Part shown: one piece after another, positions 4,685-43,589 of the stretch
Layout: each line of letters starts with the position of its first letter
Numbering within the stretch: position 1 is the stretch's first letter
Source: a virus
Taxonomy: Duplodnaviria; Caudoviricetes
Length of the DNA stretch: 64,000 nt
IMG/VR virus record: IMGVR_UViG_3300037851_000620
Span: 11,747 to 75,746 of that record
Direction: 5' to 3' (one strand)
The notes under the pieces: model-generated
Told to the model about the DNA's origin: nothing
Seen by the model: only the letters and a program-made list of their open reading frames with translations
Databases searched by the model: none
Translations under genes and position numbers: made by a program

Positions 4685-5362
4685 ATGTCAGTTGAAGAGA
4701 AACAAGCAAAGATAGTTGAAATACGACGAGGTACAATTGGAGGAGATACGTATCTCGTACGATTGCCAAACAACGGTAAAGAACCAAAGGCTATATGTTA
4801 TCGTAAGATGAAAAATCAGCCAACCATGCGTTGTACTCATGAGGCAGGTTACAGAACAAGCCATCTTGGAACAGGTGCCTGCAGATTTCATGGTGGGGCA
4901 GACAAGACTCCGACAATTTCAACTGGTATCAATGCCAAACAAACTCGTTTGCGTTTGCGGGATTCAATAGAAAATTATCTGAATTTGTCGCGTGACGATT
5001 TGCTTGATTTGACTGAGCATCTTGCCGCGACACGTGCTATCTTTGATGAGTTCCTGGAGAAATTTCCAAATCCTGATGACGAAAATTATGGGTTATGGTT
5101 TGGTCGCTTCAATGCGCTGATCATGACTCTTGGAAATCTCGTTGATAAGATATCCAGGATAGATTCTCGAAACACTCTTACAGCGGCACAAGTGCTGTAT
5201 TTGCGTGCTACAATGGTTGATATCCTTATGAAATATATTCCCGATCCTGATGTACGCGAGCGTGTTGTGAAAGAAATTGCCGTGCGTATGGGAGGAGATA
5301 TGGAATTGACTATGCGACCGTCTGAAGTATCGATGAAAAGCATTGTGGAAATTGAGCAATGA
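4685..5362 (+). CDS. Terminase small subunit candidate (HGGxSTG-type)
   Basis: RCTHEAG...GACRFHGGADKTPTISTG motif; lies upstream of TerL. Confidence 0.6.
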   Translation: MSVEEKQAKIVEIRRGTIGGDTYLVRLPNNGKEPKAICYRKMKNQPTMRCTHEAGYRTSHLGTGACRFHGGADKTPTISTGINAKQTRLRLRDSIENYLNLSRDDLLDLTEHLAATRAIFDEFLEKFPNPDDENYGLWFGRFNALIMTLGNLVDKISRIDSRNTLTAAQVLYLRATMVDILMKYIPDPDVRERVVKEIAVRMGGDMELTMRPSEVSMKSIVEIEQ

Positions 5363-6243
5363 AACTAATAATCGTAAGAAAAGGTGGTTCTGGTTCAGGA
5401 CATTTTGACCATGCAGGAAGACCTGGTGAACAAGGAGGGAGTTTACCTGGTACTGGTGGTGGGGATTCTGTAAAGGCTCTATACAAGCCTGGTCAGAAAG
5501 TGAATACAGAAAACATGATTCTTGATGTAATAAGAAACATTAAGAATTATCCAGATATGTATAACCTATTAATCGGTTTGGAAGCAGACGGTGGATTACC
5601 AGCAGGGGAAAATTTAGAGTTTATTGTGAAAGGTATGGTTGGTGCTGATGCCGTTCTCGAAGAAATGGATCCAGAATCTGCAATTGGTGAGCATGAAATA
5701 CGAAATAAGAAAATTTACGATGCTATACGCAAAGAAATAGATATATTGGCAGAAGAAGGAAGACATGCAGTTGATGAAGATGGTTGGGATGATCCTAATA
5801 ATGATGGAAAGTCAAGAGAAAGAAAAGCGTGGGAACGTAAATATTACGGCAAAGAGGTTGGTGGGCATAAGGCTGCTGAGCATGACGGTGTTAAGAGGAT
5901 TACATCTTATGTAAATGCGCTCATCGATGGTGCAGAAGCTGTTCCTCCAAAAAAGATGAGCAATAACGATATGTCATCAGATGAGAATTCACTCAAGCAA
6001 TCGCGTGATAGACTATTTAATCATTTCCAAATTGGAAGTTCTGTAAAATATGAAGGTCGCGAAGGTTGGAATGTTGTGGCTCATCTTCCATTTTATGCAG
6101 GAGACAAGCCAGCTGTAATTTTGCACGACAATGACAGTGGTGTTCGTCTCGTTGTATCTTCGAATGGTATTCAAAAAAGAATTCCAAAAGATGAGTCATT
6201 TGAATATTGGGATGTTGATAAGAAAAGGATGGTAAGACTATGA
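5359..6243 (+). CDS. Leader-peptide family protein 1 (orphan C-terminal domain)
   Basis: MKLIIVRK-GGSGSGHFDHAGRPGEQGGSLPG; ATGA-coupled at both ends. Confidence 0.8.
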   Translation: MKLIIVRKGGSGSGHFDHAGRPGEQGGSLPGTGGGDSVKALYKPGQKVNTENMILDVIRNIKNYPDMYNLLIGLEADGGLPAGENLEFIVKGMVGADAVLEEMDPESAIGEHEIRNKKIYDAIRKEIDILAEEGRHAVDEDGWDDPNNDGKSRERKAWERKYYGKEVGGHKAAEHDGVKRITSYVNALIDGAEAVPPKKMSNNDMSSDENSLKQSRDRLFNHFQIGSSVKYEGREGWNVVAHLPFYAGDKPAVILHDNDSGVRLVVSSNGIQKRIPKDESFEYWDVDKKRMVRL

Positions 6244-7418
6244 CTGAACCAATCCGAAATCCTGCTGCATTTACCTATCCCGAGCCATCGTTTATTTCAA
6301 AGCTGTTTGCAAAGGTCGGGATTCAGGCTGCTGAAGCAGTCTATAAACAGCTTATCGACGAGTCTCATTGGCAATATGAAAACGGAAAAGAAGTTGATCA
6401 TGCTGCGGCAAGAGAGGGTGGATTTCCTGGCACTATTATTCGTGCTACGATAGGTATGGAAGTAGACACAGCTTGGAAGGCTGGCAACTGGAAGCGTGCG
6501 CTTGACGATGGAATGATGGTTCAGACCTATCACTTTCATATTGGAAATATGTCAGGTTCTAATCAGGCAGACTTTCACCTGAACGCAACCAAAGAGTTTG
6601 CTGACGAGGTTGAAAAGTATGGAGCCATCGTGGTTTCTTACGGAGATTATGAAGCCGATGGCACAACCACACCAGTGACTACTCGCAAGCAAAATATGCT
6701 TGCTTTTCAGACTTATCTTCATAATAACAATCGCGAAAACGGTATTTATTCATCTGTAAAGTATTATCTCGAGCTTCTTGGAAATATTGCTCCTCCTCCC
6801 TGGTGTTGGTTATGGGGTGCTCATTGGACAGCTGGCACGCCTGTATTTCCAAGCGTGTGGAATAAAGCTAAAATCGTTGCTTGGCAGTACGCTGTTTGGG
6901 ATAATTTCTCGTTTGCGAAGCCTGTGCCTGGGAATGTTCCTGACATTGACGTCAATAAGTGGATCTATGCGCTGACAATGAAGGACTTCCTCAACTGGGG
7001 CACGACTTCTCCTCCTCCTGTTGATTGCTGTGACAAATTGGATGCAAAGATAAATGATTTGGCTTCAAGTGTTGGAAATCAGTTTGCAGAGATAAATCGA
7101 GTACTTTCAGAATTGAAAAGTGCTATCGGTTTGCATGTGCCTGTTACGACTGTGAATGTTTCGAAAGATTCGGTACTGCGTTGGGACAGGACATATAATG
7201 GTGTTTATAAGCCAAAATATGATTTTTATCCAACAGGGAGTGTGGATGATGTTGGAAAACGCATTCATGTGATTGGAAAATTGATGATATTTCCAATACC
7301 ATTGATTGGCGATGGTGGTCAGGTTTGCTATATGGTTGTAGAGCCAAAATATTACATTGGAATTCCGGCTGGAATAACATTGTTTATTCGAAAAGAAGAT
7401 ATAGTTTTCCCAACCTAA
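6240..7418 (+). CDS. GH25 muramidase endolysin
   Basis: IDESHWQ, YHF, DYE, GIYS, LWGAHW, AWQY, DIDVN match the GH25 TIM-barrel pattern; C-terminal probable cell-wall-binding region. Confidence 0.82.
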   Translation: MTEPIRNPAAFTYPEPSFISKLFAKVGIQAAEAVYKQLIDESHWQYENGKEVDHAAAREGGFPGTIIRATIGMEVDTAWKAGNWKRALDDGMMVQTYHFHIGNMSGSNQADFHLNATKEFADEVEKYGAIVVSYGDYEADGTTTPVTTRKQNMLAFQTYLHNNNRENGIYSSVKYYLELLGNIAPPPWCWLWGAHWTAGTPVFPSVWNKAKIVAWQYAVWDNFSFAKPVPGNVPDIDVNKWIYALTMKDFLNWGTTSPPPVDCCDKLDAKINDLASSVGNQFAEINRVLSELKSAIGLHVPVTTVNVSKDSVLRWDRTYNGVYKPKYDFYPTGSVDDVGKRIHVIGKLMIFPIPLIGDGGQVCYMVVEPKYYIGIPAGITLFIRKEDIVFPT

Positions 7419-7459
7419 TAAAAAGTCCATCTGTGCGCTCCCAGGAGGATCTACAACGA

Positions 7460-8842
7460 ATGCAATCGGTAAAATTGACCAATATTACGTTAATATTCAA
7501 GGTTGGGACTGACGATTCTGGTCATTGGGGACACTATGGTCGTCCAGGACTTGTTGGAGGCAGTCGTGCACGTCGTGGTCATCGTAGATCGGCTCCACCA
7601 ATAGAGACATATGCTATAGAATCTCAATGGATTTACGGTGATTATGAAGTTGGAGAATTGGCTCGTACAGCAGACGAGCTTAGAAGGCAAATTAGACGCG
7701 ATCGTGGCGAATTGATGTATCGATATATCAATTATCGTGGATATTCTCGTGAAGAAGCACGAGAACAAATTGCACAAGAGTTAGCATATTCTACTGAGCA
7801 TTTGCAAGACGCTCGTCGCGAACTCGAACGTAGGATAAATGAGCTAATCTATAGAGGTGAAGTTCCAAACGATCTTTGGTATGTCGACGGTGCTCCAGAC
7901 AATTATAACCAACTTTCATCTTTTGGACAGCCAGAAGGTTATAGCAATGCAGCAAGTCAGATGCTAGGAGATAGAGCACAAGAACCAACTCCTCAAATAG
8001 AACCAACTGTTGTGGCTCCTGCATCAGAAGCAGTACGAGCAAATGTTCAAAACAAGATGGTTGCTTTTATGCAGGATTGGCAATCAATTCCTATTGAAAT
8101 ATCCAATGACATTGTGCATGTAAACACAGCAGATTTTACACAAGAGGAAATAAGTCAATTAGAGCAAAAATTTGGCTTCAATTTGCAAGATATAAAGAAG
8201 ATGGTGTATCTTCCAAACACAACTGCAAATGTATCTATCAGAATAGAATCCGATTCGATGATAGGCATACGTGCATATATTTATCAGGCTGGTGAGAATG
8301 ATACTAATGTTGCTTATTTAAATTACGAGCTGATGGCATCTGAAGGCAAGCCAAATACATTTTATGCAGGATATTTGAAGATAGGAGATAGATTTAGAGA
8401 CAAGGATTATGGCACAACTCTTGTAACTCGTCATGCAATGATGGCAAAAATGGCGGGATACAAGACTATGGAATTCAGTGCTGACATTACAATTGGTAAA
8501 TATGCGTGGGCGAAAGAGGGTGCTAATTTCAAAGACAATGAAGGTCAATTGTTCCGTGCTAGGATGTTGATGAAGACATATGCTAGTGCAAAATTCGATG
8601 CTATTTATAGACAACCTGGTGTACGAGAAGCATTTATGGCATCGTTAAATAATTTACATTCCGCATACGATATTGCTACATTCAAATATCCTGGCATGAC
8701 AACATACGGTAGATACATCAGAAACGATGATGTATCTAGAGATATGCCTTTAGAGTTTGGAAAAGCATTCTTGTTAGACGACGATTCTAACTTTGGCAGT
8801 TGGCATGCTGTTGTAGATTTGACTAAACTCGGAGGATTTTGA
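7460..8842 (+). CDS. Leader-peptide family protein 2 with C-terminal GNAT-like domain
   Basis: Start moved to ATG 7460 (GGAGG at 7444). ITLIFK-VGTDDSGHWGHYGRPGLVGGS leader; FYAGYLKIGDRFRDKDYGT and ITIGKYAWAKEG GNAT-like motifs. Confidence 0.7.
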   Translation: MQSVKLTNITLIFKVGTDDSGHWGHYGRPGLVGGSRARRGHRRSAPPIETYAIESQWIYGDYEVGELARTADELRRQIRRDRGELMYRYINYRGYSREEAREQIAQELAYSTEHLQDARRELERRINELIYRGEVPNDLWYVDGAPDNYNQLSSFGQPEGYSNAASQMLGDRAQEPTPQIEPTVVAPASEAVRANVQNKMVAFMQDWQSIPIEISNDIVHVNTADFTQEEISQLEQKFGFNLQDIKKMVYLPNTTANVSIRIESDSMIGIRAYIYQAGENDTNVAYLNYELMASEGKPNTFYAGYLKIGDRFRDKDYGTTLVTRHAMMAKMAGYKTMEFSADITIGKYAWAKEGANFKDNEGQLFRARMLMKTYASAKFDAIYRQPGVREAFMASLNNLHSAYDIATFKYPGMTTYGRYIRNDDVSRDMPLEFGKAFLLDDDSNFGSWHAVVDLTKLGGF

Positions 8843-10179
8843 TGCTAATTATTTCCAAGCCAGAAGATGTGAATGGTGAGTCTGACAAAGACTTTTGGAA
8901 ATCTGTTTTAGAAACTGATGAACCACTCGGAATCTTTGCTGTCGCTGGTGCTGCGGCAACACAATTACAGTCAGTTGAAAAGGGAGGCAAAGGTTCTGGT
9001 CACTTTGGGCACAGAGGCAGACCAGGACAGATTGGAGGTTCTGTTGGAGGCATTCCTACATCCCTTGGAGAAAGCACGAAAATATATTCATTAGATGAGA
9101 TAAAATCTGAAGACCAAGAAGCATTAGCAAAAGCAAGAGAATATTATGCTCAACAAACACTTGCTATTGGCGGGAATTTTATGAATCCTGTCAATATAGT
9201 TCAGTGGGACAGAGTGCCTGGTGGGTGGAATACTTATCATCCGAAAGCGATTCACAATTTCAAAGTATATTTGTCAAAGATTTCTGGTGTTTTGTATGGA
9301 AATATTTCTGATGAGCTTGCTGCACGTTATGGAAGAGGTCTGTTGACAACAGATGAGGCTGTTCTAGATGCAAAACGGCAAAGAAAGACTGCCAAATTGC
9401 GATTCAAAGGTGGTAAACTCGCTGAGGACAATGTAGTCCCGGAATTTATTCCGTTTGAGCCTGAGATTGTTACAAAGAAGGCTAAACTCCGCTTGAAGGG
9501 AGGTGCCGGCTCTGGTTTCCATAATCACGCTGGTCGTCCAGGCGAAATAGGAGGCTCAGCATCCAGAGGCACTGTAAAAGATACAAGCTATTATGAAGAA
9601 AGGGATGCAGTCGGCGAATATTGGAGCAGATTGAACAGTTTCTTGCAAGGTTGGGCTGTAGCTGATGAAAAGGACAGTAATGTTACAGCAATACAAGCAG
9701 CAGCTTCTAGAGCGTTTGGAGTGTCACAAGAAGAGAACTTTGTGTATGAAAGATTTATGGAAAGAGTGCGTGTAGATCCTGCACAGTTTGAACAAGCAAT
9801 CAAGAATTTATACGATTATACGCAATCAAAATTGGCAAAAGATTATCCTGAAGGTTATATTGAAGTTTACCGTGCGTTGCATAACGTATACGATTATGAA
9901 CAATTTCCAACATCTGGTGAAGTGGATTTGAATGATGACATATTATCATCTTGGTCTAGGACGCCAGAAGGAGCAAAACAAGCAATTGAATATTGGGGGA
10001 CAAAGCAAAGCTATCGCCTTGTGAAAACACGAATTCCTACAAAGGACATTCTCATGTATCCAGGTTCTACGTGGGCAATGCGTAGACAGGTCGGTGAAGA
10101 GGAATTTGTTACAATCAATCGTGCTCCTCGCAAAGCAGAAGTCATCGAATCTGCATTAGATAAGAGAGATAAATCATGA
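8839..10179 (+). CDS. Leader-peptide family polyprotein 3 (two leaders) with C-terminal ADP-ribosyltransferase-like domain
   Basis: Leaders at 8983 and 9499, degenerate copy at 9391; R-S-E pattern VYRA (9871), LSSWS (9946), GEEEFV (10096). Confidence 0.72.
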   Translation: MMLIISKPEDVNGESDKDFWKSVLETDEPLGIFAVAGAAATQLQSVEKGGKGSGHFGHRGRPGQIGGSVGGIPTSLGESTKIYSLDEIKSEDQEALAKAREYYAQQTLAIGGNFMNPVNIVQWDRVPGGWNTYHPKAIHNFKVYLSKISGVLYGNISDELAARYGRGLLTTDEAVLDAKRQRKTAKLRFKGGKLAEDNVVPEFIPFEPEIVTKKAKLRLKGGAGSGFHNHAGRPGEIGGSASRGTVKDTSYYEERDAVGEYWSRLNSFLQGWAVADEKDSNVTAIQAAASRAFGVSQEENFVYERFMERVRVDPAQFEQAIKNLYDYTQSKLAKDYPEGYIEVYRALHNVYDYEQFPTSGEVDLNDDILSSWSRTPEGAKQAIEYWGTKQSYRLVKTRIPTKDILMYPGSTWAMRRQVGEEEFVTINRAPRKAEVIESALDKRDKS

Positions 10180-10760
10180 AACTCAAAATCGTAACAAAAG
10201 GTGGTTCAGGTTCAGGTCATTTCAATCATGAAGGACGTCCTGGTGAACAGGGTGGTAGTTTGCCTGGTACTGGTGGTGGTGCGCAAGCATCCTCAACAAG
10301 CAATTCATTTGAAGTACATGGGTCTAAAGTCAGTGTCAAGCCAGGTAGATATGAAAATTCTTTCGCATATACTGTGACGTCTTCTGATGGTGTTACATAC
10401 ACAGATTACGAAAGATCAGAGGAACAGGCAAAGAAGAAAGCAACTACGCTGGCAAAACTATTCAACAGTCCTGAAGGTAGGGCAGCACATTTGGCTGCCT
10501 CTTCTATGGCGAGCCGAGCTGATTCTGTCGCTGAATTGAAGAACGTGTTTTATCGTCAGATGAAGAACGAAGTCATCGTTGCAGATATTGATGGCTTCTA
10601 TGGAAACACTCAGGCTGCTATTGAGCTTGACGATATGAATAGATATGGCTTCAAGACTGTTGGCGACTTTGTTGCAGCCTTGGACAAAGGTGGTGCTTCG
10701 AAAGCAAAGCAAAAAAGAAGTCCCAAAGGTGCAGGTCGTTCATATTCTGTGTATGACTAA
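10176..10760 (+). CDS. Leader-peptide family protein 4 (orphan domain)
   Basis: MKLKIVTK-GGSGSGHFNHEGRPGEQGGSLPG. Confidence 0.8.
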   Translation: MKLKIVTKGGSGSGHFNHEGRPGEQGGSLPGTGGGAQASSTSNSFEVHGSKVSVKPGRYENSFAYTVTSSDGVTYTDYERSEEQAKKKATTLAKLFNSPEGRAAHLAASSMASRADSVAELKNVFYRQMKNEVIVADIDGFYGNTQAAIELDDMNRYGFKTVGDFVAALDKGGASKAKQKRSPKGAGRSYSVYD

Positions 10761-10859
10761 ACACGTAAAGAGCAAGCATTTCCAAACTATCTCTTTTCAC
10801 ATGTGTTCGCACGTAAATCATATCAAACAGGTAAATCATTTCGGAATGCTTCTTAGACT

Positions 10860-12716
10860 ATGCTAGAATCGAATGCTTCAACACCCACGTCAATTATAGA
10901 CCTGATCCGAAGTGTTTCCATACACGTCTCAGGAAACAATACGTATGCTAGATTCAGGAAAATGTATGGACACGACAGGATAGCATTCGTGTATGATTGC
11001 TTGCCGACATTTGCCAAAACGATGGCTCCATATCAAGAGGAAATATTAGGATACTTTGACAATGGTCATTACAGGGTTGCTGTAAGAGGTCCACACGGAT
11101 TAGGAAAGACGGCAATCGCAAGCATATTGGTTCACCATGGAGTTTTGACAGCAGAAACAGATGCCAAGGTTGCTACAACGGCATCAGCGTGGCGGCAGTT
11201 GGAAAAGTATCTATGGCCAGAGATTAAGAAATCCGCAAAGTTTCTAGAGTGGTCTGAGATAGGAAGAGGGATATATACAAGGGAAGAACTCCTCACAATG
11301 AGTATCAAGTTGAACCAAGGGATTGTAGAGGCATTTGCTGTAGCAAGCGATGACCATACTACAATTGAGGGTGCGCACGCAACACGAATGTTCTATGTTT
11401 TTGACGAAGCCAAGACGATACCAGGACCAACTTGGGACGCAGCAGAGGGTGCGTTTAGTAATGAAGGATTAACAATATCAGAATACGAAAGAGGAACTCC
11501 AGTAACAGGGTTAGAAAATAATTTATATAATAGTAATTCCCCTAATGGAGAAAGTAGTATAGGAAACGATTCCCGTAATGCCGTAGGTGCAGAGAACAAA
11601 AGTTCCAGTGCTGTGTATGCACGTGCTTCTGTAGAGGGTATTCAGAAGAGTGGTTCTAATAGTGTAGCAAACAAGTCCAAATCAGTCCTTCAGAACCCAC
11701 CCCTGGTCGTCCCTCATGGGCAAGGGATTGCTTCCACACGTACTCCTGCAAGCACGTTGCCAGCAACCATGTCTCCACCACGTGTCTCTGACATGATCGA
11801 GGATCACAGGCAATCACAAGTAATTAGCACTGCAAGCACTATCTATGAAGCATTAGCACTTGCAATCAGCACGCCTGGTGATCCAACAGGTCGGTTCTTT
11901 GATATACACATGCATAAGCCAGGGTATGAGGATTGGCATACTAGACACGTCACTCTAGAAGAAAGCATAGCAGCAGGACGTATTAGCAGGAAGTGGGCAG
12001 AGCAACGTGCTAGACAGTGGGGAGAAGAGAGTGCTGTGTATCAGAATCGTGTGCTTGGTGAGTTTGCTGATAACAGTGAGGATGGCATCATCCCTCGATC
12101 GTGGGTGTTACAAGCAAACGAGCGATGGCAAGCTAAACACAGGGCGGGCACACTAGACGATGATTCTCCTCGCATCCTTGGTGTAGACGTGGCACGTGGC
12201 GGCGAAGACAAAACGGTCATCGCTGTGAGGAACGGTGCGGCGGTCTCTAAAATTCACATATATTCGAAACTTGCGACCACGTCTGTCACAGGGCACGTGA
12301 AGAGTTTAGCGTCAGGCAGGAATATCCACATAGAGACTGACGGTGGTCTCGGTGCTGCGGTATATGATATGCTGAGGGAACAAGGGATTACAGGCTTGCG
12401 ACCGATTACCGTGTCCGGGAGCACGTTCTTCCGAGACAAGAGTAAGGAATTGACTTTTATCAATGTTCGTGCTGCTATGTGGTGGCACATGAGGGAATTA
12501 TTGGATCCGCACTATGGGAGCGATATATGCTTGCCACCACTGGAGGAATTGACTGCGGATTTGACGACACCACGGTGGGAGATAATGAAAGACGCCAGAG
12601 TTAAACTTGAATCAAAAGACGAAATTAGCAAGCGTTTGGGAAGAAGCACGGATTATGGAGACGCTGTTTGCTTGGCATTCTGGAATTCATCAACTGGTGG
12701 AGGAGTAGTGTTCTAA
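10860..12716 (+). CDS. terL: Terminase large subunit with ~125-aa low-complexity insertion
   Basis: Walker A VRGPHGLGKT, Walker B YVFDEA, coupling motif ISTPG, nuclease LGVDVARGGED and STDYGDA. Confidence 0.92.
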   Translation: MLESNASTPTSIIDLIRSVSIHVSGNNTYARFRKMYGHDRIAFVYDCLPTFAKTMAPYQEEILGYFDNGHYRVAVRGPHGLGKTAIASILVHHGVLTAETDAKVATTASAWRQLEKYLWPEIKKSAKFLEWSEIGRGIYTREELLTMSIKLNQGIVEAFAVASDDHTTIEGAHATRMFYVFDEAKTIPGPTWDAAEGAFSNEGLTISEYERGTPVTGLENNLYNSNSPNGESSIGNDSRNAVGAENKSSSAVYARASVEGIQKSGSNSVANKSKSVLQNPPLVVPHGQGIASTRTPASTLPATMSPPRVSDMIEDHRQSQVISTASTIYEALALAISTPGDPTGRFFDIHMHKPGYEDWHTRHVTLEESIAAGRISRKWAEQRARQWGEESAVYQNRVLGEFADNSEDGIIPRSWVLQANERWQAKHRAGTLDDDSPRILGVDVARGGEDKTVIAVRNGAAVSKIHIYSKLATTSVTGHVKSLASGRNIHIETDGGLGAAVYDMLREQGITGLRPITVSGSTFFRDKSKELTFINVRAAMWWHMRELLDPHYGSDICLPPLEELTADLTTPRWEIMKDARVKLESKDEISKRLGRSTDYGDAVCLAFWNSSTGGGVVF

Positions 12717-13081
12717 TGAACGATCTTCTTGAAAGACGTGCTAGATTCGTGTATGAAGGTGCAAGGCTTGCAAACATATCAACGAATGCTCCTATCAATC
12801 CTGTGCCATGGGAAGAACGCGAAGAGAGCTTCAAAGTACAGTTCTGTGAAGTGATTGACAGGCAAATGAGCGATGCACGATCGATGTCTCCAGAAGAACT
12901 GCATGGATCGTGGATGCAAGCATACTACACGATGGGATGGAAGTATGGCGAAGTGTATGATCGCGAGAACAAAATACACCCAGATCTTGTGCCATTTTCT
13001 ATGCTTCACAAACTTGAGCAAGACAAAGATGGGATTTTCATTGCACTATGTGAAATAGCACGGTTATGGATAACATCATGA
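12716..13081 (+). CDS. RyR-domain protein
   Basis: EELHGSWM...GWKYGEVYDRENKIHPDLVPF..L...EQDKD; start at TAATG overlap with terL. Confidence 0.8.
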   Translation: MNDLLERRARFVYEGARLANISTNAPINPVPWEEREESFKVQFCEVIDRQMSDARSMSPEELHGSWMQAYYTMGWKYGEVYDRENKIHPDLVPFSMLHKLEQDKDGIFIALCEIARLWITS

Positions 13082-13332
13082 AACTAATCATTCGTCACAA
13101 AGGTGGTCCAGGCTCTGGATTCTATGGACACGTTGGACGTCCAGGTCAGGTGGGAGGATCACAAGCGTCTAATACACAAACATATACAAAGCCATCAAAA
13201 GAGACACATGCTGGTCTTCTAGACACACGTAAAAATCCATTCGTGCCTGGAGCGTGGAGATCTTGGCTTCTGTGCGGATATTGTATACAGAAGCATCAAG
13301 AAGTGGGCAGGAAAAGGTTTGCAAAGCATTGA
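13078..13332 (+). CDS. Leader-peptide family protein 5, possibly frameshifted (continuation in another frame 13223-13423)
   Basis: MKLIIRHK-GGPGSGFYGHVGRPGQVGGS; ATGA-coupled start at 13078. Confidence 0.65.
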   Translation: MKLIIRHKGGPGSGFYGHVGRPGQVGGSQASNTQTYTKPSKETHAGLLDTRKNPFVPGAWRSWLLCGYCIQKHQEVGRKRFAKH

Positions 13333-13419
13333 TTATGAAGCGTATGCTGAGATCCTTACCAGACTCAATTTACTTGATGAATATGCTGCGTGCATAGAAA
13401 TCATGAAGAAGTATATGCC

Positions 13420-14745: not shown

Positions 14746-14978
14746 TTTATGTAGACGATATGCGCGACGGTTGGTGCCACATGGTAACAGATGGCGACAT
14801 TGAAGAATTGCATACGTTTGCTCAAGGCATAGGTCTGAAACGTTCCTGGTTTCAGATTACAAACAATCCGCACTACGATTTGAAAGGCTTCGCGAAGCGC
14901 GAAGAGGCAATAAAGAATGGAGCCAAGCCTGTGACGTCACGTGAAATGATTTCCATTCTAAGGAGTGTGCGTGCATGA
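14742..14978 (+). CDS. DUF4031-family protein
   Basis: IYVDD, WCHMVTD, EELHTFAQGIGLKRSWFQ, HYDL. Confidence 0.82.
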   Translation: MIYVDDMRDGWCHMVTDGDIEELHTFAQGIGLKRSWFQITNNPHYDLKGFAKREEAIKNGAKPVTSREMISILRSVRA

Positions 14979-15655
14979 AGATAAGACTGAAGATAAGACT
15001 GAAGATAAGACTGAAGGGAGGCTCAGGTTCTGGTCACTTTGATCATGCAGGCATTCCTGGGCATCAAGGTGGCAGTCTGCCAGGGAATTCAACTGCTGTT
15101 TCATATTCAGGTGTGTCGACAACTGCTACATCGCGTTCAAGAATGCCAGAAGCCAATAGAGTCATGCTACAAAATATTGCAAAACGTCTTGGATATAACA
15201 AGCCACTCGTTTTTAAAGACACTGTTAATCCAGGAGATTCCAACTTGATGGGCGATTATGATGTCGAAACAGGCGTCATAACAATATACGATAATGCTTG
15301 GAGAGAGGGAGTATCTAAACAGGCTGTTGCTCATGAAGTCACGCATGCACAGTATCACGATGTTCTTGATGCTGTGGTGAATGAAGATGCACGTGTTGAT
15401 AATTACACACGCTTTGTTCAAAATAATTGGGACTCATTGTACGAAGCTGGGTCTAAGATAGAATGGTCAGATTATGCAAAGTCCTTCTGGGACGATACGT
15501 CTCCAGACGACGAGATTGACCATGCATTAGGTGAAACATATGCTGAGCTTGCTAGATTAGAAAGCAAGCAAATAGACATTTCTGGCAAGTTCGGGGACTC
15601 TATTTTGATACAATCTTACAGGGAGTTCAAGAAAGCATATGAAAACATCAAGTAG
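14975..15655 (+). CDS. Leader-peptide family protein 6 with zincin metallopeptidase-like domain
   Basis: (KIRL)x3-K-GGSGSGHFDHAGIPGHQGGS; VAHEVTH at 15332; downstream ETYAE. Confidence 0.72.
   Translation: MKIRLKIRLKIRLKGGSGSGHFDHAGIPGHQGGSLPGNSTAVSYSGVSTTATSRSRMPEANRVMLQNIAKRLGYNKPLVFKDTVNPGDSNLMGDYDVETGVITIYDNAWREGVSKQAVAHEVTHAQYHDVLDAVVNEDARVDNYTRFVQNNWDSLYEAGSKIEWSDYAKSFWDDTSPDDEIDHALGETYAELARLESKQIDISGKFGDSILIQSYREFKKAYENIK
14978..15016 (+). repeat. In-frame tandem repeat (AAGATAAGACTG)x3 + AAG encoding KIRLKIRLKIRLK
   Basis: Exact 12-nt unit read directly from the sequence. Confidence 0.95.
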
Positions 15656-16760
15656 AGTTATGTATTTAGACGATGACTTCAATATAGTCTCAAAAGACAA
15701 GGCGACTATTTCCAAAGTCTGGAAGGCTGATGGAAGCATAGAATTTCGTGCTATGCGATCTACGAAAGTGCGTTTGAAGGGAGGCTCAGGCTCTGGGCAT
15801 TTCCAACATCGTGGTCGTCCAGGACAAGTTGGTGGAAGCACAGCAGATAATCAAGCTGCATATGAGGCACGATTAGCAGCAGCATTGAATGCTGAGGACA
15901 CTGATAAGTGGGAAGCTGACAAGGTAAAAGATTTGCTTGCAGATACGAGTCGTTGGGAGTTAGATACATCTTATGCTACAGAGCGTGGTGCTAATGGTAT
16001 CTCAAAGACTGCAAAAATCCATATCCAAGGTGATGGCTATGCTATCATCAAACAGCCGTATTATAAAGATCCGGCAATGCCAGGCGATGTGTCTGTATAT
16101 TCCACTGAGAATGATCCTTACAAAGAAGAAGATACTTATTTGTTAGCACAAGCTCTTGGTTGGGATGTCGTTCCTGTTGGTGCATATGCAAGTGATACAA
16201 AAAACATTGTTGGTGGAGGTTTAGTATCTGTTCAACAGTGGGTTGACGATGTGCAAAGTGTGCACAGTTATATGGGAAAACCACAAAAAGACAAAGACGT
16301 CGATCTTGAAAGATTTAGACAGGTTGCGTGGATCGATACTATTACAGGAAACTATGATCGTCATGGTGCTAATTTATTGATAAAAAGTGTGAATGGTGTT
16401 GCAACTCCTGTGGCTATCGACAATGGCATAGCGTGGGATATAAAACGTTACGATTATGATCGTAAGGTTCGAGACAGTGGTTTGTCATTCTACGACAATG
16501 TCATGAATTCGGACAGTCATTATGGCGATGTACTTTCGCAAACACAGGCGCATAACAATGAAGGAAGATTTCCATTAGGAAAACAGATATCTCGTAGACA
16601 ATACAATCAAGTGAAATCATTCTTAGACACTGATAGTCCAACTCGTAGACAGTTTATCTCGCATTATGGAGATGAATGGCTTGCGCGAGCAAAATTGCGT
16701 GTGGATGGTGTGCGAGAATCTGCAGACAGACGCCTGTTTGGATACTCGTGGACAGACTGA
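15639..16760 (+). CDS. Leader-peptide family protein 7 with PI3/PI4-kinase / HipA-like kinase domain
   Basis: VRLK-GGSGSGHFQHRGRPGQVGGS at 15780; EEDTYLLAQALGWDVVP, SVQQWV, GNYDRHGANLL, VAIDNG. Confidence 0.78.
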   Translation: MKTSSRVMYLDDDFNIVSKDKATISKVWKADGSIEFRAMRSTKVRLKGGSGSGHFQHRGRPGQVGGSTADNQAAYEARLAAALNAEDTDKWEADKVKDLLADTSRWELDTSYATERGANGISKTAKIHIQGDGYAIIKQPYYKDPAMPGDVSVYSTENDPYKEEDTYLLAQALGWDVVPVGAYASDTKNIVGGGLVSVQQWVDDVQSVHSYMGKPQKDKDVDLERFRQVAWIDTITGNYDRHGANLLIKSVNGVATPVAIDNGIAWDIKRYDYDRKVRDSGLSFYDNVMNSDSHYGDVLSQTQAHNNEGRFPLGKQISRRQYNQVKSFLDTDSPTRRQFISHYGDEWLARAKLRVDGVRESADRRLFGYSWTD

Positions 16761-31789: not shown

Positions 31790-33190
31790 ATGCCTTGGGA
31801 TATAAAGATTGAAAACGGAAAGCATTGTGTATACAAAAAGACAACTGGCAAGATAATGCATTGCTATGACAATGAGAAGGATGCAAAAGATTATCTTGGC
31901 GCATTGTATGCAAATGTCAGCGAGAAGGAATTAAAAGAATTTCTTGCTGATAATATTTCCAATATTGCAACTTTCAAAGAAGCGGATGGTCGTTATAAAA
32001 TCGTTGCTGTGTCGACTGCTGCACTCAAAGATCGTGATGGGGAGACGTTTGATGTTGCCGCGATTGATTACGATGCTCGTGCTGCTGCAAAGCATGGTGA
32101 CTATCCTGAATTTCGCATGTTTCACAAGAAAGGTTTGAAGATTGGAAAAGTTGAGAAGATGAAGCGAGTCGGTATATTTGCTGTAGACGAAGGACATTCG
32201 TATACCGATCAATTTTCCTTAGAAGTTTGCGAAAAGATGTTGTCTACAAATGATGGAAAATGGCGCACGTCTCGTGGATTTTACGTTGTTGAAGCATCAG
32301 GGGATTGCCCTGTTTGTAAGGAATCATTGCTTATACAGACCAAGCATATGGTTGCAGGCTTCAGATGCCCGAGTTGTAATGCGGTGCACATGAGTAGTCG
32401 GGGAGTGCTTGGAGACATGCACTTTCGGAAGGCACGGACTTTTGATGTCACGGTGACTGATAATCCATCAGTGCCGTGGACAGGAGTTTCTGCATTCAAA
32501 GAAAATTCAAGTTTGGAGGATTTGGAAATGACAAAACAGCAGTTGGAGAAGAAACTTCTCGACGCTGGCATCAGCAAGGAAGCGATTGCGGCTCGTCTTG
32601 AAGGTTTGTCGGAAGAGCAGTTGAAAGAGTTCTCTGACATTCCGTTCGCAACCATGCTGAAAGAGTTTGGCAATGATGCTGGTGAAGAGGAAGAGTACGA
32701 CACGATTGCTCTTGACGAGGAATCGTTGAAGGAGTTTGGCAAGATTGTGCGTGCTGTCATTCGCGAAGAGATGGGCACAGTCATTAAGGAGCAGGTTGCG
32801 GCTGCGATCGAAGGTTTGGAAATCGATATTGCCGATCTTGGTGGTATGGAAGTCGATTTCAAAGAGGCTCCTCAATTTGTTGAGCTGAAAGAAGCAGTAG
32901 ATTCATTGACTGAAAAGGTTGAGAAGCTTCTGACTTCTGATGAGCAACGGCTGAAGGAGATGCTGGAAGAGACTCCTCGCGCTGGTAAGCTGCGCATTCG
33001 TCGCTACAAGAAAGCATCTCCACCCGGAGATGAAGAAGATGATGACGAAGACGATGATGAAATGGACGATGACGAAGACGTCTACGACAAGAAAACAGGT
33101 CATCGCCAGAAAGAATCTGGGCTGATCATCGTTGGTGCTGATGGCAAAACCGCGAAAAGCATGACCGAGTTCGTCCTCGGATCTGAATAA
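31790..33190 (+). CDS. Prohead protease (HK97/S78-like) fused to scaffold
   Basis: DRDGE, FRMFH, RTSRGF, DVTVTDNPSV resemble the HK97 protease fold; acidic coiled-coil C-terminus; directly upstream of capsid gene. Confidence 0.65.
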   Translation: MPWDIKIENGKHCVYKKTTGKIMHCYDNEKDAKDYLGALYANVSEKELKEFLADNISNIATFKEADGRYKIVAVSTAALKDRDGETFDVAAIDYDARAAAKHGDYPEFRMFHKKGLKIGKVEKMKRVGIFAVDEGHSYTDQFSLEVCEKMLSTNDGKWRTSRGFYVVEASGDCPVCKESLLIQTKHMVAGFRCPSCNAVHMSSRGVLGDMHFRKARTFDVTVTDNPSVPWTGVSAFKENSSLEDLEMTKQQLEKKLLDAGISKEAIAARLEGLSEEQLKEFSDIPFATMLKEFGNDAGEEEEYDTIALDEESLKEFGKIVRAVIREEMGTVIKEQVAAAIEGLEIDIADLGGMEVDFKEAPQFVELKEAVDSLTEKVEKLLTSDEQRLKEMLEETPRAGKLRIRRYKKASPPGDEEDDDEDDDEMDDDEDVYDKKTGHRQKESGLIIVGADGKTAKSMTEFVLGSE

Positions 33191-33233: not shown

Positions 33234-34706
33234 ATGAAGAAAAAGATGAAGAAAGGTATCTATTCTCCCGAAGATATGCAGGCTCTTGGTCGTGCTATCG
33301 GATCCTCGCTGGCGTCTGCTCAGTTCGGCATGCAAAACGCTCAGCGACCTGCAGCCTTCGAAATGTTCAAGGAAGCCAGCATCACCCCGACGTCGGTTTC
33401 CATTTACGGTCGTAATTCGATCTTCGATGCGTGCAGCCCTGGTGATGTGTTTGGTCTTCAGGTTCAGACGATTGGTTTGATGCCGTGGATCGGTTGGCGT
33501 CCGAATCGCTTCTATCGCCGACATGTTGATTTCATCCCGTGGTGGGGTCCTGCTGGTACGAAGAGCGGCTCTCCTGCAACAGGTGCGAAGTCTCCGTGCG
33601 ACGACCCGACATCTTGGGAATATGCAATCTGCGGATACGACCTGTGCCACACGTCCTTCTACAGCATTGGCAGCGAAGGTCTCGATCCTCATACGATTGT
33701 GCAAGATCGTTGCGAAACGTCGCCTCGTTATCGTCTGAATGGTCAGTTGATCAGCGACGATGTTGAGTGGCAGATGAACGGTATCATGAACGTTCTCGCT
33801 CAGCAGATGCGCCGTGCACTGATCCATGGCTCTCACGACAATGCCAATGAGATGGATGGTCTTGAGCAAATCATCAAGACAGGCTACACCAACGACAACA
33901 ATACTACCTGCCCTCAGATTGACAGCATCTTGGTTGACTGGAACAACGACGACCTTGATGGCGCTGTGAACAATCTTGGAAATTTCTTCGATTATCTTGA
34001 CGAAGTTGTGACCGAGATCGAATGGCGTGCTCAAGAGCTTGGTCCGATCCTCGAGACCGATATGGTTCTGATCACATCGCGCTTTATGGCAACCTGTTTG
34101 CTCGATGCTTATGCATGCTACACGACCTGTGGTGTGACTGATACCAATGACGTCACGGATCAGGCACTGCGTGCTCAACAGCGTGCGGCTCGTATGGCTC
34201 TGAATGGTGGTCCGCTCTATGATGGTGCTCGTGCGGTTGGATATCTCAACCTGAAATCTGGGCGTCGGCTGCCGATCATCGTCGAGGATGCTTTGGATAT
34301 CTCAAAGTTTTCGACGACATACTGCACCGACGTCTACCTGCTGACTCGGCGCATCGGTTCGCGCGACGTTCTGTATGGCGAATACCTGGATATGCGCGAG
34401 TACGAGAATCGTGTGAAGAGGCAGTTTACAAACTTCTCCGGTCGCTCTGATTCGATGGGTCGCTTTGCTCTTAAAGGCAAAGAGGACAACTTCTGCATCA
34501 GCCTGATGATGGGCACGTCTCCAGAGATCTACTTGTCGGCTCCATGGGCACAGGTTCGCTTCCAGGATGTTTGCTGCACTCGCAAGCGCACTCCGCTGAC
34601 TGGCGATCCTTTCCAGCCGTATTATATGCCTGGTGGGAAGCCTTTGCATACTGCAACTCCTCAGACCGATTGTGGTCCGGACTGCGGTCAGGATGGAACT
34701 GCATAG
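33234..34706 (+). CDS. Major capsid protein
   Basis: Position after protease/scaffold; strong GGAGG RBS; C-ending codon bias; EMDGLEQII; terminator follows. Confidence 0.75.
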   Translation: MKKKMKKGIYSPEDMQALGRAIGSSLASAQFGMQNAQRPAAFEMFKEASITPTSVSIYGRNSIFDACSPGDVFGLQVQTIGLMPWIGWRPNRFYRRHVDFIPWWGPAGTKSGSPATGAKSPCDDPTSWEYAICGYDLCHTSFYSIGSEGLDPHTIVQDRCETSPRYRLNGQLISDDVEWQMNGIMNVLAQQMRRALIHGSHDNANEMDGLEQIIKTGYTNDNNTTCPQIDSILVDWNNDDLDGAVNNLGNFFDYLDEVVTEIEWRAQELGPILETDMVLITSRFMATCLLDAYACYTTCGVTDTNDVTDQALRAQQRAARMALNGGPLYDGARAVGYLNLKSGRRLPIIVEDALDISKFSTTYCTDVYLLTRRIGSRDVLYGEYLDMREYENRVKRQFTNFSGRSDSMGRFALKGKEDNFCISLMMGTSPEIYLSAPWAQVRFQDVCCTRKRTPLTGDPFQPYYMPGGKPLHTATPQTDCGPDCGQDGTA

Positions 34707-34780: not shown

Positions 34781-34789
34781 ATAATGATA

Positions 34790-34799: not shown

Positions 34800-34804
34800 A
34801 TTAT

Positions 34805-40398: not shown

Positions 40399-40751
40399 CC
40401 AATATTGCGCTCTGTGGGCTCTCTACAGCAGCCATCGTGTTCTTATTGAAGTACACTGATGGTCCATTTGATATATTCTATCGGCTGCGTAAAGCATCTG
40501 GTATGATTATTCCGTTGTACGATACTTTGAATATTTCCATCGTAGGTTATGCGGAAGACGACGATCCTGAACGATTTTGGGCATTGTGGTTCAGATGCTT
40601 CTGGTGCATGTCTACATGGATTGCATTCTTTGTATCGATAGCGTATATATTATTGATGAGGATGCCTGTTGCTTTATTTCCATTTCTATGGTTTGCATCT
40701 ATTGGAGTATCTGGATTACTGCTGGAGTTATTGAATAAATGGCGAGAATAA
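40395..40751 (+). CDS. DUF1360-like membrane protein
   Basis: DGPFDIFYRLR and CFWCMSTW motifs. Confidence 0.65.
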   Translation: MTNIALCGLSTAAIVFLLKYTDGPFDIFYRLRKASGMIIPLYDTLNISIVGYAEDDDPERFWALWFRCFWCMSTWIAFFVSIAYILLMRMPVALFPFLWFASIGVSGLLLELLNKWRE

Positions 40752-41833
40752 CAGCTGGAATATTGCCTGAAGGTTTCGTTCCTGGTCTGACTATTGACAG
40801 ATATCAGGAAATTATGAGGCTGCCGATTGCAGCCTTCAATGGTTTGAATAAGCCAGATGAACTCCCTGTTTATCAATGTTCGGAGATTTGGAAGCAAGGC
40901 GAGCGTGATGGTCTTGCGATGCATCTTGCGCAAGCAGAAGAAATGCGTGAAGTAGAATTAGGATATCCATTATCTCTGAAATACTTTTCATGCAAGACTT
41001 ATGAATATGGCTATCCTGTTATAATTCCTGTCAAGCACATGATCGAGATAGGCACTCAGAAGTTTAGTGACATTTCCATAGGTGCTGCATTAACATTAGG
41101 TGTAGAAACGACACCAAACGATCCTGTAACACTTGTGATTGCTTCTGCATTGACTGATGCTTCTGAAATTCGTGTTTATTATCCTGGCGAAGATGTTGAA
41201 ATCCATCCTTCAAGTGTGACGATTTCTGGTGGTAACATTACCATTAATATCCCTCGATCGAGGCTTGTGAAGCCTTCTTTGTTAGATGACCGTGAAGATC
41301 ATTTGAGCTATTATGAGAATGATAATTTCTTGACGACAGTTGATGTCAAGCGCAAATACTACGATATTTCAGATGCCGCATACTTTATATGGACTGAAGA
41401 TCAATGTGCTTGCAGTACTGTGTCATCTGATGTATTATCTGAGAAATCACAACTAGCATTTCCAAAGATAGAAGATACAAGACTTAGTATCGTATATTTC
41501 ACTCCGGCAACATATTCGGCTCCGACATGGACTGCTGCGTGTTGGTCGTATGCTTGTGAGCCAAATCATGTGCGCTTGAATTTCACTGCAGGACGTCGAG
41601 CGTCTATGTATACAGAAGTACAGACAGCACGTCTTGCGCATACACTTATGCCAAACAAACCATGTTCATGTCCGACCGTTCATCAGTATTGGCAGGAAGA
41701 TATTGTAGATTCGCAACAGAATACTCCATACGGACGTCGTGTTGGAGCACTGAACGCATGGCTTGCAGATAGTCGACAAAAAGTTGGACAAGGTGGAAAA
41801 TTTCCATCCATGAGAGGACATTATGGGCGATAA
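40739..41833 (+). CDS. Head completion / adaptor protein candidate
   Basis: Position in the head-neck region; LAQAEE...ELGY, Cys-rich C-terminus. Confidence 0.5.
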   Translation: MARITAGILPEGFVPGLTIDRYQEIMRLPIAAFNGLNKPDELPVYQCSEIWKQGERDGLAMHLAQAEEMREVELGYPLSLKYFSCKTYEYGYPVIIPVKHMIEIGTQKFSDISIGAALTLGVETTPNDPVTLVIASALTDASEIRVYYPGEDVEIHPSSVTISGGNITINIPRSRLVKPSLLDDREDHLSYYENDNFLTTVDVKRKYYDISDAAYFIWTEDQCACSTVSSDVLSEKSQLAFPKIEDTRLSIVYFTPATYSAPTWTAACWSYACEPNHVRLNFTAGRRASMYTEVQTARLAHTLMPNKPCSCPTVHQYWQEDIVDSQQNTPYGRRVGALNAWLADSRQKVGQGGKFPSMRGHYGR

Positions 41834-42545
41834 AAATTTGAAAGTTGTGTTTGCATTTGAAAAAGAAAATCCTGAATCGATGAACGCACCTGTGCTGAAA
41901 GGTGGTAAAGGAAGCGGACATCACGGGCATAAAGGTATTCCTGGACACCAAGGAGGAAGCCTTCCAGAAGGTGCTGCTGGTAATGCTGGAGAAGCACTGA
42001 ATGCTATTCTTGGTGAAGAATTGGCAAATACTCCTCGTGCTCCGATGCCAGACACTACACCTGTTGGAAATGTCAAGCCAGGTGGCAAACAACTGACTAT
42101 GGACGAGTTGCAGAAGCAGATGGATAGACATAACGAAAGAGTTGTGACAGAAGGTGTGCAAATTTCGTCTTATAATGGTCGCACAGGTCGGTCGTCTTGG
42201 TACAGACAAACAAACAGATTCGATCAGACTGTGTCGTTCAATACTCCTGAAGAAGCTGATATTTGGATGAACGAAATCCATGGGCAGTTATCGGATGGTA
42301 AATATGAACATCGTTGGAATAAAGATACATACTTGCCATATTTGTATAAGGTGAAAGTTGATAGGTCGAAGCCAACAACTTTTCCAAAACAGCATTATGG
42401 AGATCCGCATCTGAGTTTCACAGATTTGGCGTTTGTATTTGAAGGTGATACATACGAGGCACGAGGCAGATATACTCAGAAAGATGCTCGTGCTATCCTT
42501 GCAAAGATTTCCAAAGCATACAGAGCTTCGTATTCGGATTATTGA
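41823..42545 (+). CDS. Leader-peptide family protein 9 (orphan domain)
   Basis: PVLK-GGKGSGHHGHKGIPGHQGGSLP at 41901. Confidence 0.78.
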   Translation: MGDKNLKVVFAFEKENPESMNAPVLKGGKGSGHHGHKGIPGHQGGSLPEGAAGNAGEALNAILGEELANTPRAPMPDTTPVGNVKPGGKQLTMDELQKQMDRHNERVVTEGVQISSYNGRTGRSSWYRQTNRFDQTVSFNTPEEADIWMNEIHGQLSDGKYEHRWNKDTYLPYLYKVKVDRSKPTTFPKQHYGDPHLSFTDLAFVFEGDTYEARGRYTQKDARAILAKISKAYRASYSDY

Positions 42546-43114
42546 TGCCTCTAACATTGATTCGTCGTCCTCGCTCTCCTCGTGTCCTTCATGATATTAT
42601 CAAGGACGAAGTCCGTGCAGCTTATAAACAGCTTGGCGATGAGATGATTGCACGATTAGAGAAGGACATCGACGAATGGGCAGCGAAGCCAGATTTCCAA
42701 AGTCGTATAGAGGTTGGCGACAAACGTTGGATGGTTTCTGTACGATATGACAAGGATACAGATATCGGTACAATCTATATGTGGGTTGATGAAGGAACGG
42801 CTGAAGCTGGTGGAAAGGGAAGTAAATATCCAATAGTTCCTGTGAATGCCAAAGCATTGAAATTTACTGTTCCTAACATGCCGAAAACACGACCAAATGT
42901 TATTGCTGGTATTCCAGGTGTTGTGATGGCGCAAGGCAATGCGACTGTTATGGATGTTTACAGCCAAAAGGTTATGCATCCAGGCATCACACCGAGGAAT
43001 TTTACCAAATCCTTGCGTGAAGAGTATATGCAGCGAGAAAAAGTTGGAGGCTTCCGTTCTGTAACAGAAGCTGCAATCAAGCGAGGAACTCGCAAAATTG
43101 GGAAATATGCATAG
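42545..43114 (+). CDS. HK97 gp10-like neck/tail completion protein
   Basis: WVDEGT, YPIVPVNAKALKF, KVMHPGITPRNF. Confidence 0.65.
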   Translation: MPLTLIRRPRSPRVLHDIIKDEVRAAYKQLGDEMIARLEKDIDEWAAKPDFQSRIEVGDKRWMVSVRYDKDTDIGTIYMWVDEGTAEAGGKGSKYPIVPVNAKALKFTVPNMPKTRPNVIAGIPGVVMAQGNATVMDVYSQKVMHPGITPRNFTKSLREEYMQREKVGGFRSVTEAAIKRGTRKIGKYA

Positions 43115-43127
43115 AGAGAGAGAGAAA

Positions 43128-43589
43128 ATGACAAAACTCATCATAACATACAAAGGTGGTTCTGGTTCTGGGCATCATGGTCACAGAGGAAGACCTGGTG
43201 AGCAAGGTGGTTCTCTTCCTGGTGATGGTGGTGCTCCTAAACAGGATGTTCCTGACTACGAATTTAAGCCTGGTGTTGAAGATGTGTATAGAGAGCTTGT
43301 AAATTCTGGAATAGAGGAATTTTCTGTCGTAACAGATAAACGACCGAAAGTCGGAGGTTTTGGTGCTGGTCAGTATATAAAATTAACATATGCAGGATCG
43401 CGAAAGATAGACGATCTTGCTGATGGAATCGATACAATAATGAGAAAGGCAGGATTTTCTCATACACACAATTCAAGTGGATGGTCGCATTATAAGAAAG
43501 GAAATGTGATATTGTCTACAAAGCGATCTGTTCACGGAACTACAGGGAATACATATAAATCGAAATACACGATTGCAAATCTTGGATAA
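43128..43589 (+). CDS. Leader-peptide family protein 10 (orphan domain)
   Basis: MTKLIITYK-GGSGSGHHGHRGRPGEQGGSLPG; start 43128 after GA-rich RBS. Confidence 0.78.
   Translation: MTKLIITYKGGSGSGHHGHRGRPGEQGGSLPGDGGAPKQDVPDYEFKPGVEDVYRELVNSGIEEFSVVTDKRPKVGGFGAGQYIKLTYAGSRKIDDLADGIDTIMRKAGFSHTHNSSGWSHYKKGNVILSTKRSVHGTTGNTYKSKYTIANLG

Follow-up and report, generated by a model that had tools for sequence, protein, structure and literature searches.

Why do ten genes of a single phage place the same short peptide ahead of unrelated protein modules? This question is raised by a 64,000-nucleotide (nt) stretch of the IMG/VR record IMGVR_UViG_3300037851_000620 (referred to here as the window), which is part of one 75,746-bp contig assembled from an uncultivated phage. 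Phages inject proteins with their DNA, and outside T4, P1, N4, and phiKZ-like phages, such cargo is hard to recognize. An earlier note on this DNA regarded the shared peptide (here, the tag) as a leader that addresses effectors to the phage head. Here, we found that the tag, far from being a device of the window phage, occurs widely as a junction motif of phage-type polyvalent proteins, to which the window adds a split form, with ten separately encoded tagged modules and eleven tags in one 75-kb genome. Our preferred explanation, to which we assign a probability of about one-half, is that the tag acts as a module tag of phage-type polyvalent cargo proteins, that is, as a packaging or processing label read at head assembly, after which the modules would be injected.

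A six-frame scan and alignment of the window located 11 copies of the tag in ten plus-strand genes scattered across 38 kb (Table 1), in agreement with the number and positions proposed earlier. The minus strand contained none, and no further copy was present in the remaining 11.7 kb of the contig; every gene of the genome lies on the plus strand. The tag is a glycine-rich stretch of 28 residues with the pattern h-x-h-x-K-GG-x-GSG-[HF]-x-x-H-x-G-[RI]-PG-x-x-GGS. Eleven columns (K8, G9, S13, G14, H18, G20, P22, G23, G26, G27, and S28) were invariant across the copies, and the core H.G.PG..GG, observed 11 times, did not occur in 200 mononucleotide or 200 triplet shuffles. One copy was a variant, K-VGTDDSG-HWGHYGRPGLVGGS, which is one residue longer. 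The alignment also reproduced the two subtypes described in the earlier note, the GEQGGSLPG type (GRPGEQGGSLPG) in genes 5359, 10176, and 43128 and GIPGHQGGSLP in genes 14975 and 41823.

The ten canonical copies were 77% identical as protein and 65% identical as DNA, differing codons were used at 60% of the positions with identical residues, and the longest DNA word in common was 17 nt. For the copies at 5383 and 10200, identity was 90% at the amino acid (aa) level and 83% at the nt level, with synonymous differences in 37% of the codons for identical residues. Since codons and DNA have diverged more than the protein, selection acts on the tag peptide rather than on the DNA, as had been claimed.

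The tag had no counterpart among Pfam and PHROGs families. When the tag alone was modeled by AlphaFold2 with 125 instances, a predicted local distance difference test (pLDDT) score of 54 and zero secondary structure were obtained, which points to a disordered linear motif rather than a domain. Its layout comprises a short strand with alternating hydrophobic residues and a final K or R, the segment GG-x-GSG-[NHF]-[FHWY]-G-H-x-G-R-P-G-x-[VIRQ]-GGS, and a flexible Ala/Pro/Gly/Ser linker. A comparison of the tag profile with the PDB returned His-tag artefacts and a nonsignificant Pax linker, and nothing else. Two local irregularities were seen in the strand part. At 9391-9414, 30 residues upstream of tag 4 in gene 8842-10179, a half-site AKLRFK-GG (strand-K-GG, with the rest of the motif missing) may be what is left of a decayed tag, or else a minimal site. 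At 14976-15016, a perfect 12-nt tandem repeat of 3.4 copies triples the K-I-R-L strand before tag 7 (MKIRLKIRLKIRLK-GG) and looks like recent slippage.

A profile of the 11 window copies was searched against 1.84 billion representative proteins. Matches were obtained in 4,392 clusters at an E value of ≤1e-3, in 783 at ≤1e-10, and in 102 at ≤1e-30. The best matches were proteins of 600 to 3,150 aa that carried 3 to 10 tags, with a median of 225 aa from one to the next, and the first copy fell within the first 60 residues in 96 of 149 giant proteins. In the window, with gene starts judged by ribosome-binding sites, the tag lay inside the first 15 residues in seven of the ten genes and behind 18 to 39 residues in two (probably 39 in gene 15639-16760 and 18 in gene 41823-42545), and gene 8842-10179 carried two internal copies. 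The gene with tag 2 probably starts at 7460 rather than at 7325. The tag is not always a leader in the window, and elsewhere it is mostly internal to giant proteins, so that this term is too narrow; processing at the tag is no less likely a function than pure addressing.

Over 1,133 unique instances, the consensus was [h-x-x-(K/R)]-GG-P-GSG-[N/H/F]-[F/H]-G-H-A-G-R-P-G-[E/K/Q]-V-GGS-[A/L]-P. Positions G9, G10, G12, S13, G14, H18, G20, G23, G26, G27, and S28 were 96 to 100% conserved, R21 was 89% conserved, and P22 was 87% conserved. The GIPGHQ subtype is a recurrent allele, with His24 accompanying Ile21 in 56 of 72 instances and Arg21 in 13 of 1,015. Among N-terminal tags, the start Met stood 7 to 10 residues ahead of the GG in 31 of 67 (8 residues in 19) and immediately ahead of it in another 7; within the clade of the window phage, N-terminal tags take the form M-K-h-x-h-x-x-K-GG. 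When genes are split, the downstream module keeps the short strand.

In Pfam-annotated tag proteins, the tag positions fell exactly at domain borders. The enzyme and effector families on these proteins included ART-PolyVal, ADPrib_exo_Tox, ATLF-type zincin, Zeta_toxin, GNAT, PI3_PI4_kinase, 2H/LigT, KptA, NUDIX, ParB_N, ChaB, Peptidase_M90, and SprT-like, and HExxH motifs were enriched tenfold (126 sites versus 12 expected). The structural families were Phage_Mu_F (PF04233), Phage_portal (PF04860), Phage_portal_3 (PF06381), and Peptidase_S78_2 (PF14550), with the tag located downstream of the portal domains. For example, P0073 has the order portal (62-399)-tag (479)-tag (668)-VapB-like-tag (877)-tag (1077)-oxidoreductase, P0019 the order tag-ART-tag-x-tag-PolyA_pol-HD-tag-x-tag-x, and P0207 the order ChaB-tag-x-tag-S78_2 protease-tag-x. 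Other searches were less productive. A word-indexed search with region 1-40 retrieved only 4 proteins, a comparison of the tag-rich proteins P0029 and P0024 with phages and plasmids matched only unrelated domains, and a scan of 185,579 species genomes, made with a narrow pattern that undercounts the tag, gave 5 loci, 3 of them among genes homologous to viral loci.

Two further junction peptides, LGD-x-x-GH-[PED]-F-[RH]-GNQ-[WY]-T and [HQ]-PRD-x-x-G-x-[FW], were seen at module borders in L057 (30-6134 and 7548-9833), L046, L047, L054, L055, L058, P0050, and P0132, on polyvalent proteins or contigs shared with the tag; a Gly/Ser-rich linker comes after each of them. Since peptides of the GHPFRGNQW and HPRDxxGxF types occur in the same proteins as the tag (L057, L046, and P0132), the tag is one member of a set of junction peptides.

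The cargo behind the window tags was identified in part. In gene 5359-6243, cargo residues 60 to 188 matched residues 752 to 876 of an 889-aa polyvalent protein (locus L039), and therefore both fusion and fission occur. The cargo of gene 7460-8842 matched the repeated GNAT modules of P0157 (PF00583) and can be called GNAT-like through transitive homology. That of gene 15639-16760 matched P0185, P0164, P0022, and P0183, all four of which carry PF00454; by the same kind of homology, the PI3/PI4-kinase-like assignment in the earlier note holds. Overall, the cargo identities given in that note could be verified only in part. The module behind tag 4 showed an R/S-x-S/E-x-E pattern, a weak match to a DRAT-like ART in L003 (E = 1e-5), and a match to P0138/P0081 (E = 1e-54). 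The protein 29721-31763 contained HEYAH ... EDFAE, as in lethal-factor-type zincins, together with weak 2H phosphoesterase matches and a Cys-rich C-terminal domain that is common to many tag proteins (E < 1e-70). Gene 14975-15655 has an HEVTH motif and is zincin-like, and four window cargoes are orphans. Read-through of the short gene 13066-13332 into 13390-14004 was ruled out by five stop codons between them.

If a polyvalent protein is taken to be one polypeptide with at least two unrelated effector domains, the products of genes 8842-10179 (two tagged modules) and 29721-31763 (zincin, weak 2H, and C-terminal domain) belong to this class. The other eight tagged genes each consist of one tag and one cargo region of 55 to 440 aa; these single-module genes are split relatives of polyvalent proteins and not polyvalent themselves.

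The setting of the tag was analyzed in 74 IMG/VR loci on 69 contigs. A recognized portal lay within 10 kb of the tag in at least 30 of the 69 contigs, and these portals fell into three unrelated families. Together with the fusions to portal, MuF, and prohead protease domains, this upholds the tie to head assembly proposed earlier. The few tag loci from bacterial assemblies had neighbors homologous to viral loci. Relatives of the window phage (L002/L036, L042/L053, L024, L039, L007, L026, and L008), which are phages of about 75 kb, kept the backbone gene order and bore tagged genes at the same three hot spots: between the homologue of 4685-5362 and the terminase gene; after the portal and MuF-like genes, including between the MuF-like and protease-scaffold genes; and around the homologue of 40739-41833. 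Most of the relatives' cargo at these sites had no homologue in the window. Cassettes thus turn over at fixed hot spots, and the portability of the tag ahead of unrelated enzyme modules, as originally proposed, is seen both in this swapping and in the fused domains of the profile matches. Other related contigs (A3 members L003:4704-7166, L010:1381-3939, L034:4129-6735, and others) encode untagged portal-MuF-type fusions of about 820 aa, with a C-terminal domain bearing an H-P-x-C-x-C ... H-P-x-C-H-C signature.

Table 1. Tag copies and head genes in the window (GG, first position of the GG or, in tag 2, position of the variant copy)
Feature	Coordinates	Strand	GG	Description
Tag 1	5359..5442	+	5383	MKLIIVRK-GG...GGS; N-terminus of gene 5359-6243 (294 aa); cargo recurs in L039
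Tag 2	7478..7564	+	7502	Variant; near N-terminus of gene 7460-8842
Tag 3	8959..9042	+	8983	Internal, residue ~48 of two-module gene 8842-10179
Tag 4	9475..9558	+	9499	Internal, residue ~220 of gene 8842-10179
Tag 5	10176..10259	+	10200	N-terminus of gene 10176-10760 (194 aa); orphan cargo
Large terminase	10860..12716	+		phrog_2, E = 1.9e-30; synteny; first hot spot of tagged genes alongside
Tag 6	13078..13161	+	13102	N-terminus of short gene 13066-13332 (88 aa); cargo ~55 aa
Tag 7	14975..15076	+	15017	GIPGHQ subtype; N-terminus of gene 14975-15655
Tag 8	15756..15839	+	15780	In gene 15639-16760
Portal	27736..29721	+		Profile of the protein and 11 relatives matches PDB portal 8q7d, E = 9.6e-11
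Tag 9	29724..29807	+	29748	N-terminus of gene 29721-31763, directly after portal
Putative prohead protease and acidic helical scaffold	31790..33190	+		Protease at residues ~60-245; scaffold in C-terminal half
Major capsid protein	33234..34706	+		Weak phrog_212 match
Tag 10	41877..41960	+	41901	GIPGHQ subtype; in gene 41823-42545; orphan cargo
Tag 11	43131..43214	+	43155	N-terminus of gene 43128-43589; orphan cargo

The head genes of the window bear on how the tag might be read. The portal gene abuts gene 29721-31763, and the order is identical in L036 and L042. The earlier note had called the latter a MuF gene; its adjacency to the portal stands, but the family assignment does not. The protein had no PF04233 (Phage_Mu_F) match in Pfam, and hhalign gave a probability of only 1.7% between its C-terminal family and PF04233-bearing domains. 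The C-terminal domain was modeled by AlphaFold2 at a pLDDT of 83, and Foldseek against BFVD returned borderline matches to a "minor capsid protein" (E = 3.6e-3) and to "phage head morphogenesis domain" proteins (E = 0.02 to 0.03), with template-modeling (TM) scores of 0.33 to 0.39. This domain is plausibly MuF-like by position and borderline fold match, not by family membership.

The next gene, 31790-33190, fell among Peptidase_S78/S78_2/S77 clusters in the ESM Atlas (feature score, 0.90 to 0.91; TM, 0.57 to 0.65), and its position between the MuF-like and capsid genes suits a prohead protease. The two nearest structural rows (TM, 0.75 to 0.77) carried no protease family, and no Pfam, PHROG, or PDB sequence match was found. 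The product is thus a lead only as a prohead protease and as the candidate enzyme acting on the tag. The conserved L-R-I-R-R-[FY]-K stretch of its scaffold half was considered as a second copy of the strand and dropped, as it lay outside the top 45 sites ranked by a matrix made from the strand sequences of the clade. No Gly-Gly-specific peptidase, either deubiquitinase (DUB)-like or JAB, was detected by Pfam over the 68 open reading frames (ORFs) of the window.

The capsid protein had 179 homologous clusters; the 120 listed were 58 to 79% identical, many of them on 70- to 80-kb contigs. The window phage is a member of a large, abundant uncultivated clade. No close cultured relative of this clade was found, since tblastn of 29721-31760 against 50,697 phage records gave only short matches of 14 to 27% identity to the 2H region. 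Upstream of the terminase gene and beside the tagged genes, 4685-5362 encodes a conserved 225-aa protein (44 to 66% identity in 8 related contigs) that has no Pfam match and may be the small terminase. An untagged 190-aa protein is encoded between tagged genes at 42542-43114 and is found likewise in a related 75.3-kb phage (L036:9432-10004) at 38% identity; for this protein, a role as adaptor or chaperone of tagged cargo is conceivable.

The rest of the genome was annotated with Pfam and PHROGs, which identified RecA, a flap endonuclease, a sigma factor, a GH25 lysozyme, thymidylate synthase, glycosyltransferases, and UvsW, DnaB, and UvrD-like helicases. Directly after the capsid gene, the block 34805-40398 contains two GT2-type glycosyltransferase genes (37476-39272 and 39253-40398) and methyltransferase-like genes; it is kept in relatives and may serve virion or capsid glycosylation. 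Small ORFs encode dCTP-deaminase-like, dCMP-deaminase, UDG-superfamily, HicA-toxin-like, and RyR-domain proteins (Pfam). Taken with the thymidylate synthase at 24047-25201, these proteins give a hint of modified nucleotide metabolism. The window showed no tRNA genes.

The mechanism that we propose starts from a tag standing before every small effector module. Most phages have these modules strung together in one giant protein, which portal, MuF, or protease domains anchor inside the head; in the window phage, the string has been broken up into ten genes, with the tag kept at or near each N-terminus. Reading of the tag during head assembly would mark the module for incorporation into the procapsid, and a maturation protease, possibly the S78-like protease-scaffold protein 31790-33190 or the zincin of the portal-adjacent protein, would trim or separate the modules at the tag. 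The cut would plausibly fall between [K/R] and GG and leave a Gly N-terminus. The spacing of the start Met, the retention of the strand, and the half-site fit either such a cut or Met removal, by which every module would acquire a Gly N-terminus. The variable enzyme set would finally be ejected into the host together with the DNA.

Several points weigh against this explanation. A near-identical tag across three unrelated portal families is hard to reconcile with docking on capsid or portal surfaces, which evolve fast. A protease site needs far fewer than twenty conserved residues, and the conserved positions are found mainly on the P' side of the proposed cut. The protease call itself is a lead from the ESM Atlas. 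Seven of the ten tagged genes lie 14 to 24 kb from the head genes, beside those for terminase, lysozyme, and methyltransferases. As other junction peptides occur in tag proteins, one reader protein may be insufficient to account for every junction. In addition, tblastn with the 34-aa tag found no cultured phage that carries it, although a low-complexity filter probably hid matches.

A competing explanation holds that the tag is purely a processing site or linker that tells a protease where to cut, with N-terminal copies being fission leftovers or propeptides and no addressing involved. Most instances are internal and lie exactly between domains, a prohead protease domain is itself found between tags in P0207, and the h-R-L-K-GG form resembles the Gly-Gly sites of other proteases, such as the ubiquitin tail LRLRGG and the virion polyprotein sites of adenovirus and African swine fever virus. 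The enrichment of HExxH zincin peptidases adds to this, and zincin processing of polyvalent proteins was predicted by Iyer et al. in 2017 (PMC5512222). However, leftovers would decay, yet the N-terminal tags are conserved like the internal ones, and nearly two-thirds of the giant proteins begin with a tag although nothing there needs removal. The strand is always kept with the downstream module after fission, the window encodes no detected Gly-Gly-specific cysteine or JAB peptidase, and the length of the tag and its P'-side conservation also speak against a mere cleavage site. We consider this explanation a serious competitor but unlikely.

The portal families suggest another explanation, in which the tag binds a universal partner other than the capsid. 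The nearly identical tag across the three families would suit a partner that does not coevolve, such as the DNA minor groove, where an AT-hook- or Pax-linker-like G-R-P-G-x-[VI]-GGS-x-P would tether enzymes to the genome in the head and during entry, or a conserved host factor met after injection. The sole PDB resemblance was to the Pax paired-domain linker RPGVIGGSKP (1pdn), which sits in the DNA minor groove, and invariant Gly residues with one Arg would suit backbone-mediated groove contacts. This match was nonsignificant (E = 0.4 to 0.7), however. The basic character of the tag is also weak, and 48% of the instances carry Glu at position 24. We regard the explanation as rather improbable.

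A still fainter candidate is a clasp by which tags associate with one another, through the beta-strand or a Gly-X-Y-like stretch (GNF-GHA-GRP-GEV-GGS), so that free modules assemble on the MuF-like protein at the portal in place of the covalent string. The portal-adjacent MuF-like protein bears the same tag, a self-recognizing tag would be portable among unrelated phages, and five consecutive Gly-X-Y triplets can be read in the motif. However, a stable triple helix requires more than five triplets, the tag has no predicted structure, and it is retained between covalently joined modules, where a clasp would be needless. Finally, a DNA-level recombination joint or repeat, kept alike by gene conversion and serving cassette exchange only, would fit the exchange of cargo at the tag among related phages but is contradicted by the codon usage, DNA identity, and short shared words of the window copies and by the conservation of the same peptide in thousands of diverged proteins, and it can practically be dismissed.

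The module-tag explanation can also be extended. Tentatively, and with less confidence, we suggest that the tag is a universal portable virion-cargo label in thousands of uncultivated phages, such that any module behind it would be loaded, cut between [K/R] and GG, and injected with the DNA. If so, sequence alone would suffice to read out the enzyme repertoire that a phage injects, foreign proteins could be loaded into capsids by means of the 28-mer, and the alternative junction peptides (GHPFRGNQW and HPRDxxGxF) would form a small address code. Hundreds of small enzyme modules, many with a fold not yet known, are bordered by this 20-residue motif, which is conserved in more than 4,000 protein clusters. 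It provides a sequence handle for listing candidate anti-defense and host-takeover effectors in metagenomes, and the processing long predicted for polyvalent proteins can be tested on it as a concrete peptide. The loading of proteins into capsids also gains a candidate tag. The window is useful here because its modules are already separate genes, so that tag-cargo pairs are individually testable.

Literature searches with several notations and literal strings found no paper describing the motif, which is apparently unpublished. Among known systems, encapsulin cargo-loading peptides are likewise short conserved peptides on a flexible linker that send unrelated enzymes inside an HK97-fold shell; they are usually C-terminal and of another sequence. 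The T4 capsid targeting sequence, which is carried by IPI-III and Alt and removed by gp21, is a comparable short N-terminal peptide shared by unrelated proteins, including an ADP-ribosyltransferase, all of which go into the head and enter the host with the DNA. However, it has no sequence likeness to the tag, which is longer, Gly-rich, also internal, and found across differing portal families. The tag strand ends in K-GG and not in a T4-type L/I-x-E site, and gp21 is an S77 protease, whereas the candidate protease of the window looks S78-like. In phiKZ and SPN3US, many internal head proteins lose N-terminal regions to the prohead protease (gp175 or gp245) at maturation, but the cleavage motif is [S/A/G]-x-E, and no conserved 20-residue Gly-rich tag is involved (PMC10052503, PMC7411985).

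In the MuF polymorphic toxins of temperate phages (Jamet et al. 2017, PMC5576092), a head-morphogenesis domain beside the portal has exchangeable effector domains, a layout that the putative MuF-like gene of the window resembles. These toxins carry one C-terminal toxin after MuF and an immunity gene, whereas the window modules precede the MuF-like domain and most cargo is unfused; no such motif is described in that paper. The tagged giant proteins matched by the profile belong to the phage-type polyvalent proteins described by Iyer, Burroughs, Anand, de Souza, and Aravind (2017), who predicted head packaging and zincin processing for them and whose paper does not mention the junction motif in its text (PMC5512222). 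Their domain repertoire (ART-PolyVal, zincin MPTase, GNAT, kinases, 2H, ParB, and MuF linkage) recurs in the Pfam families on tag-bearing proteins and in the transitive matches of the window cargo, and the head-gene neighborhood and the predicted packaging, injection, and proteolytic processing are also common to both (PMC5512222). The difference is that the window modules are mostly separate single-domain genes spread over 38 kb, not one polypeptide.

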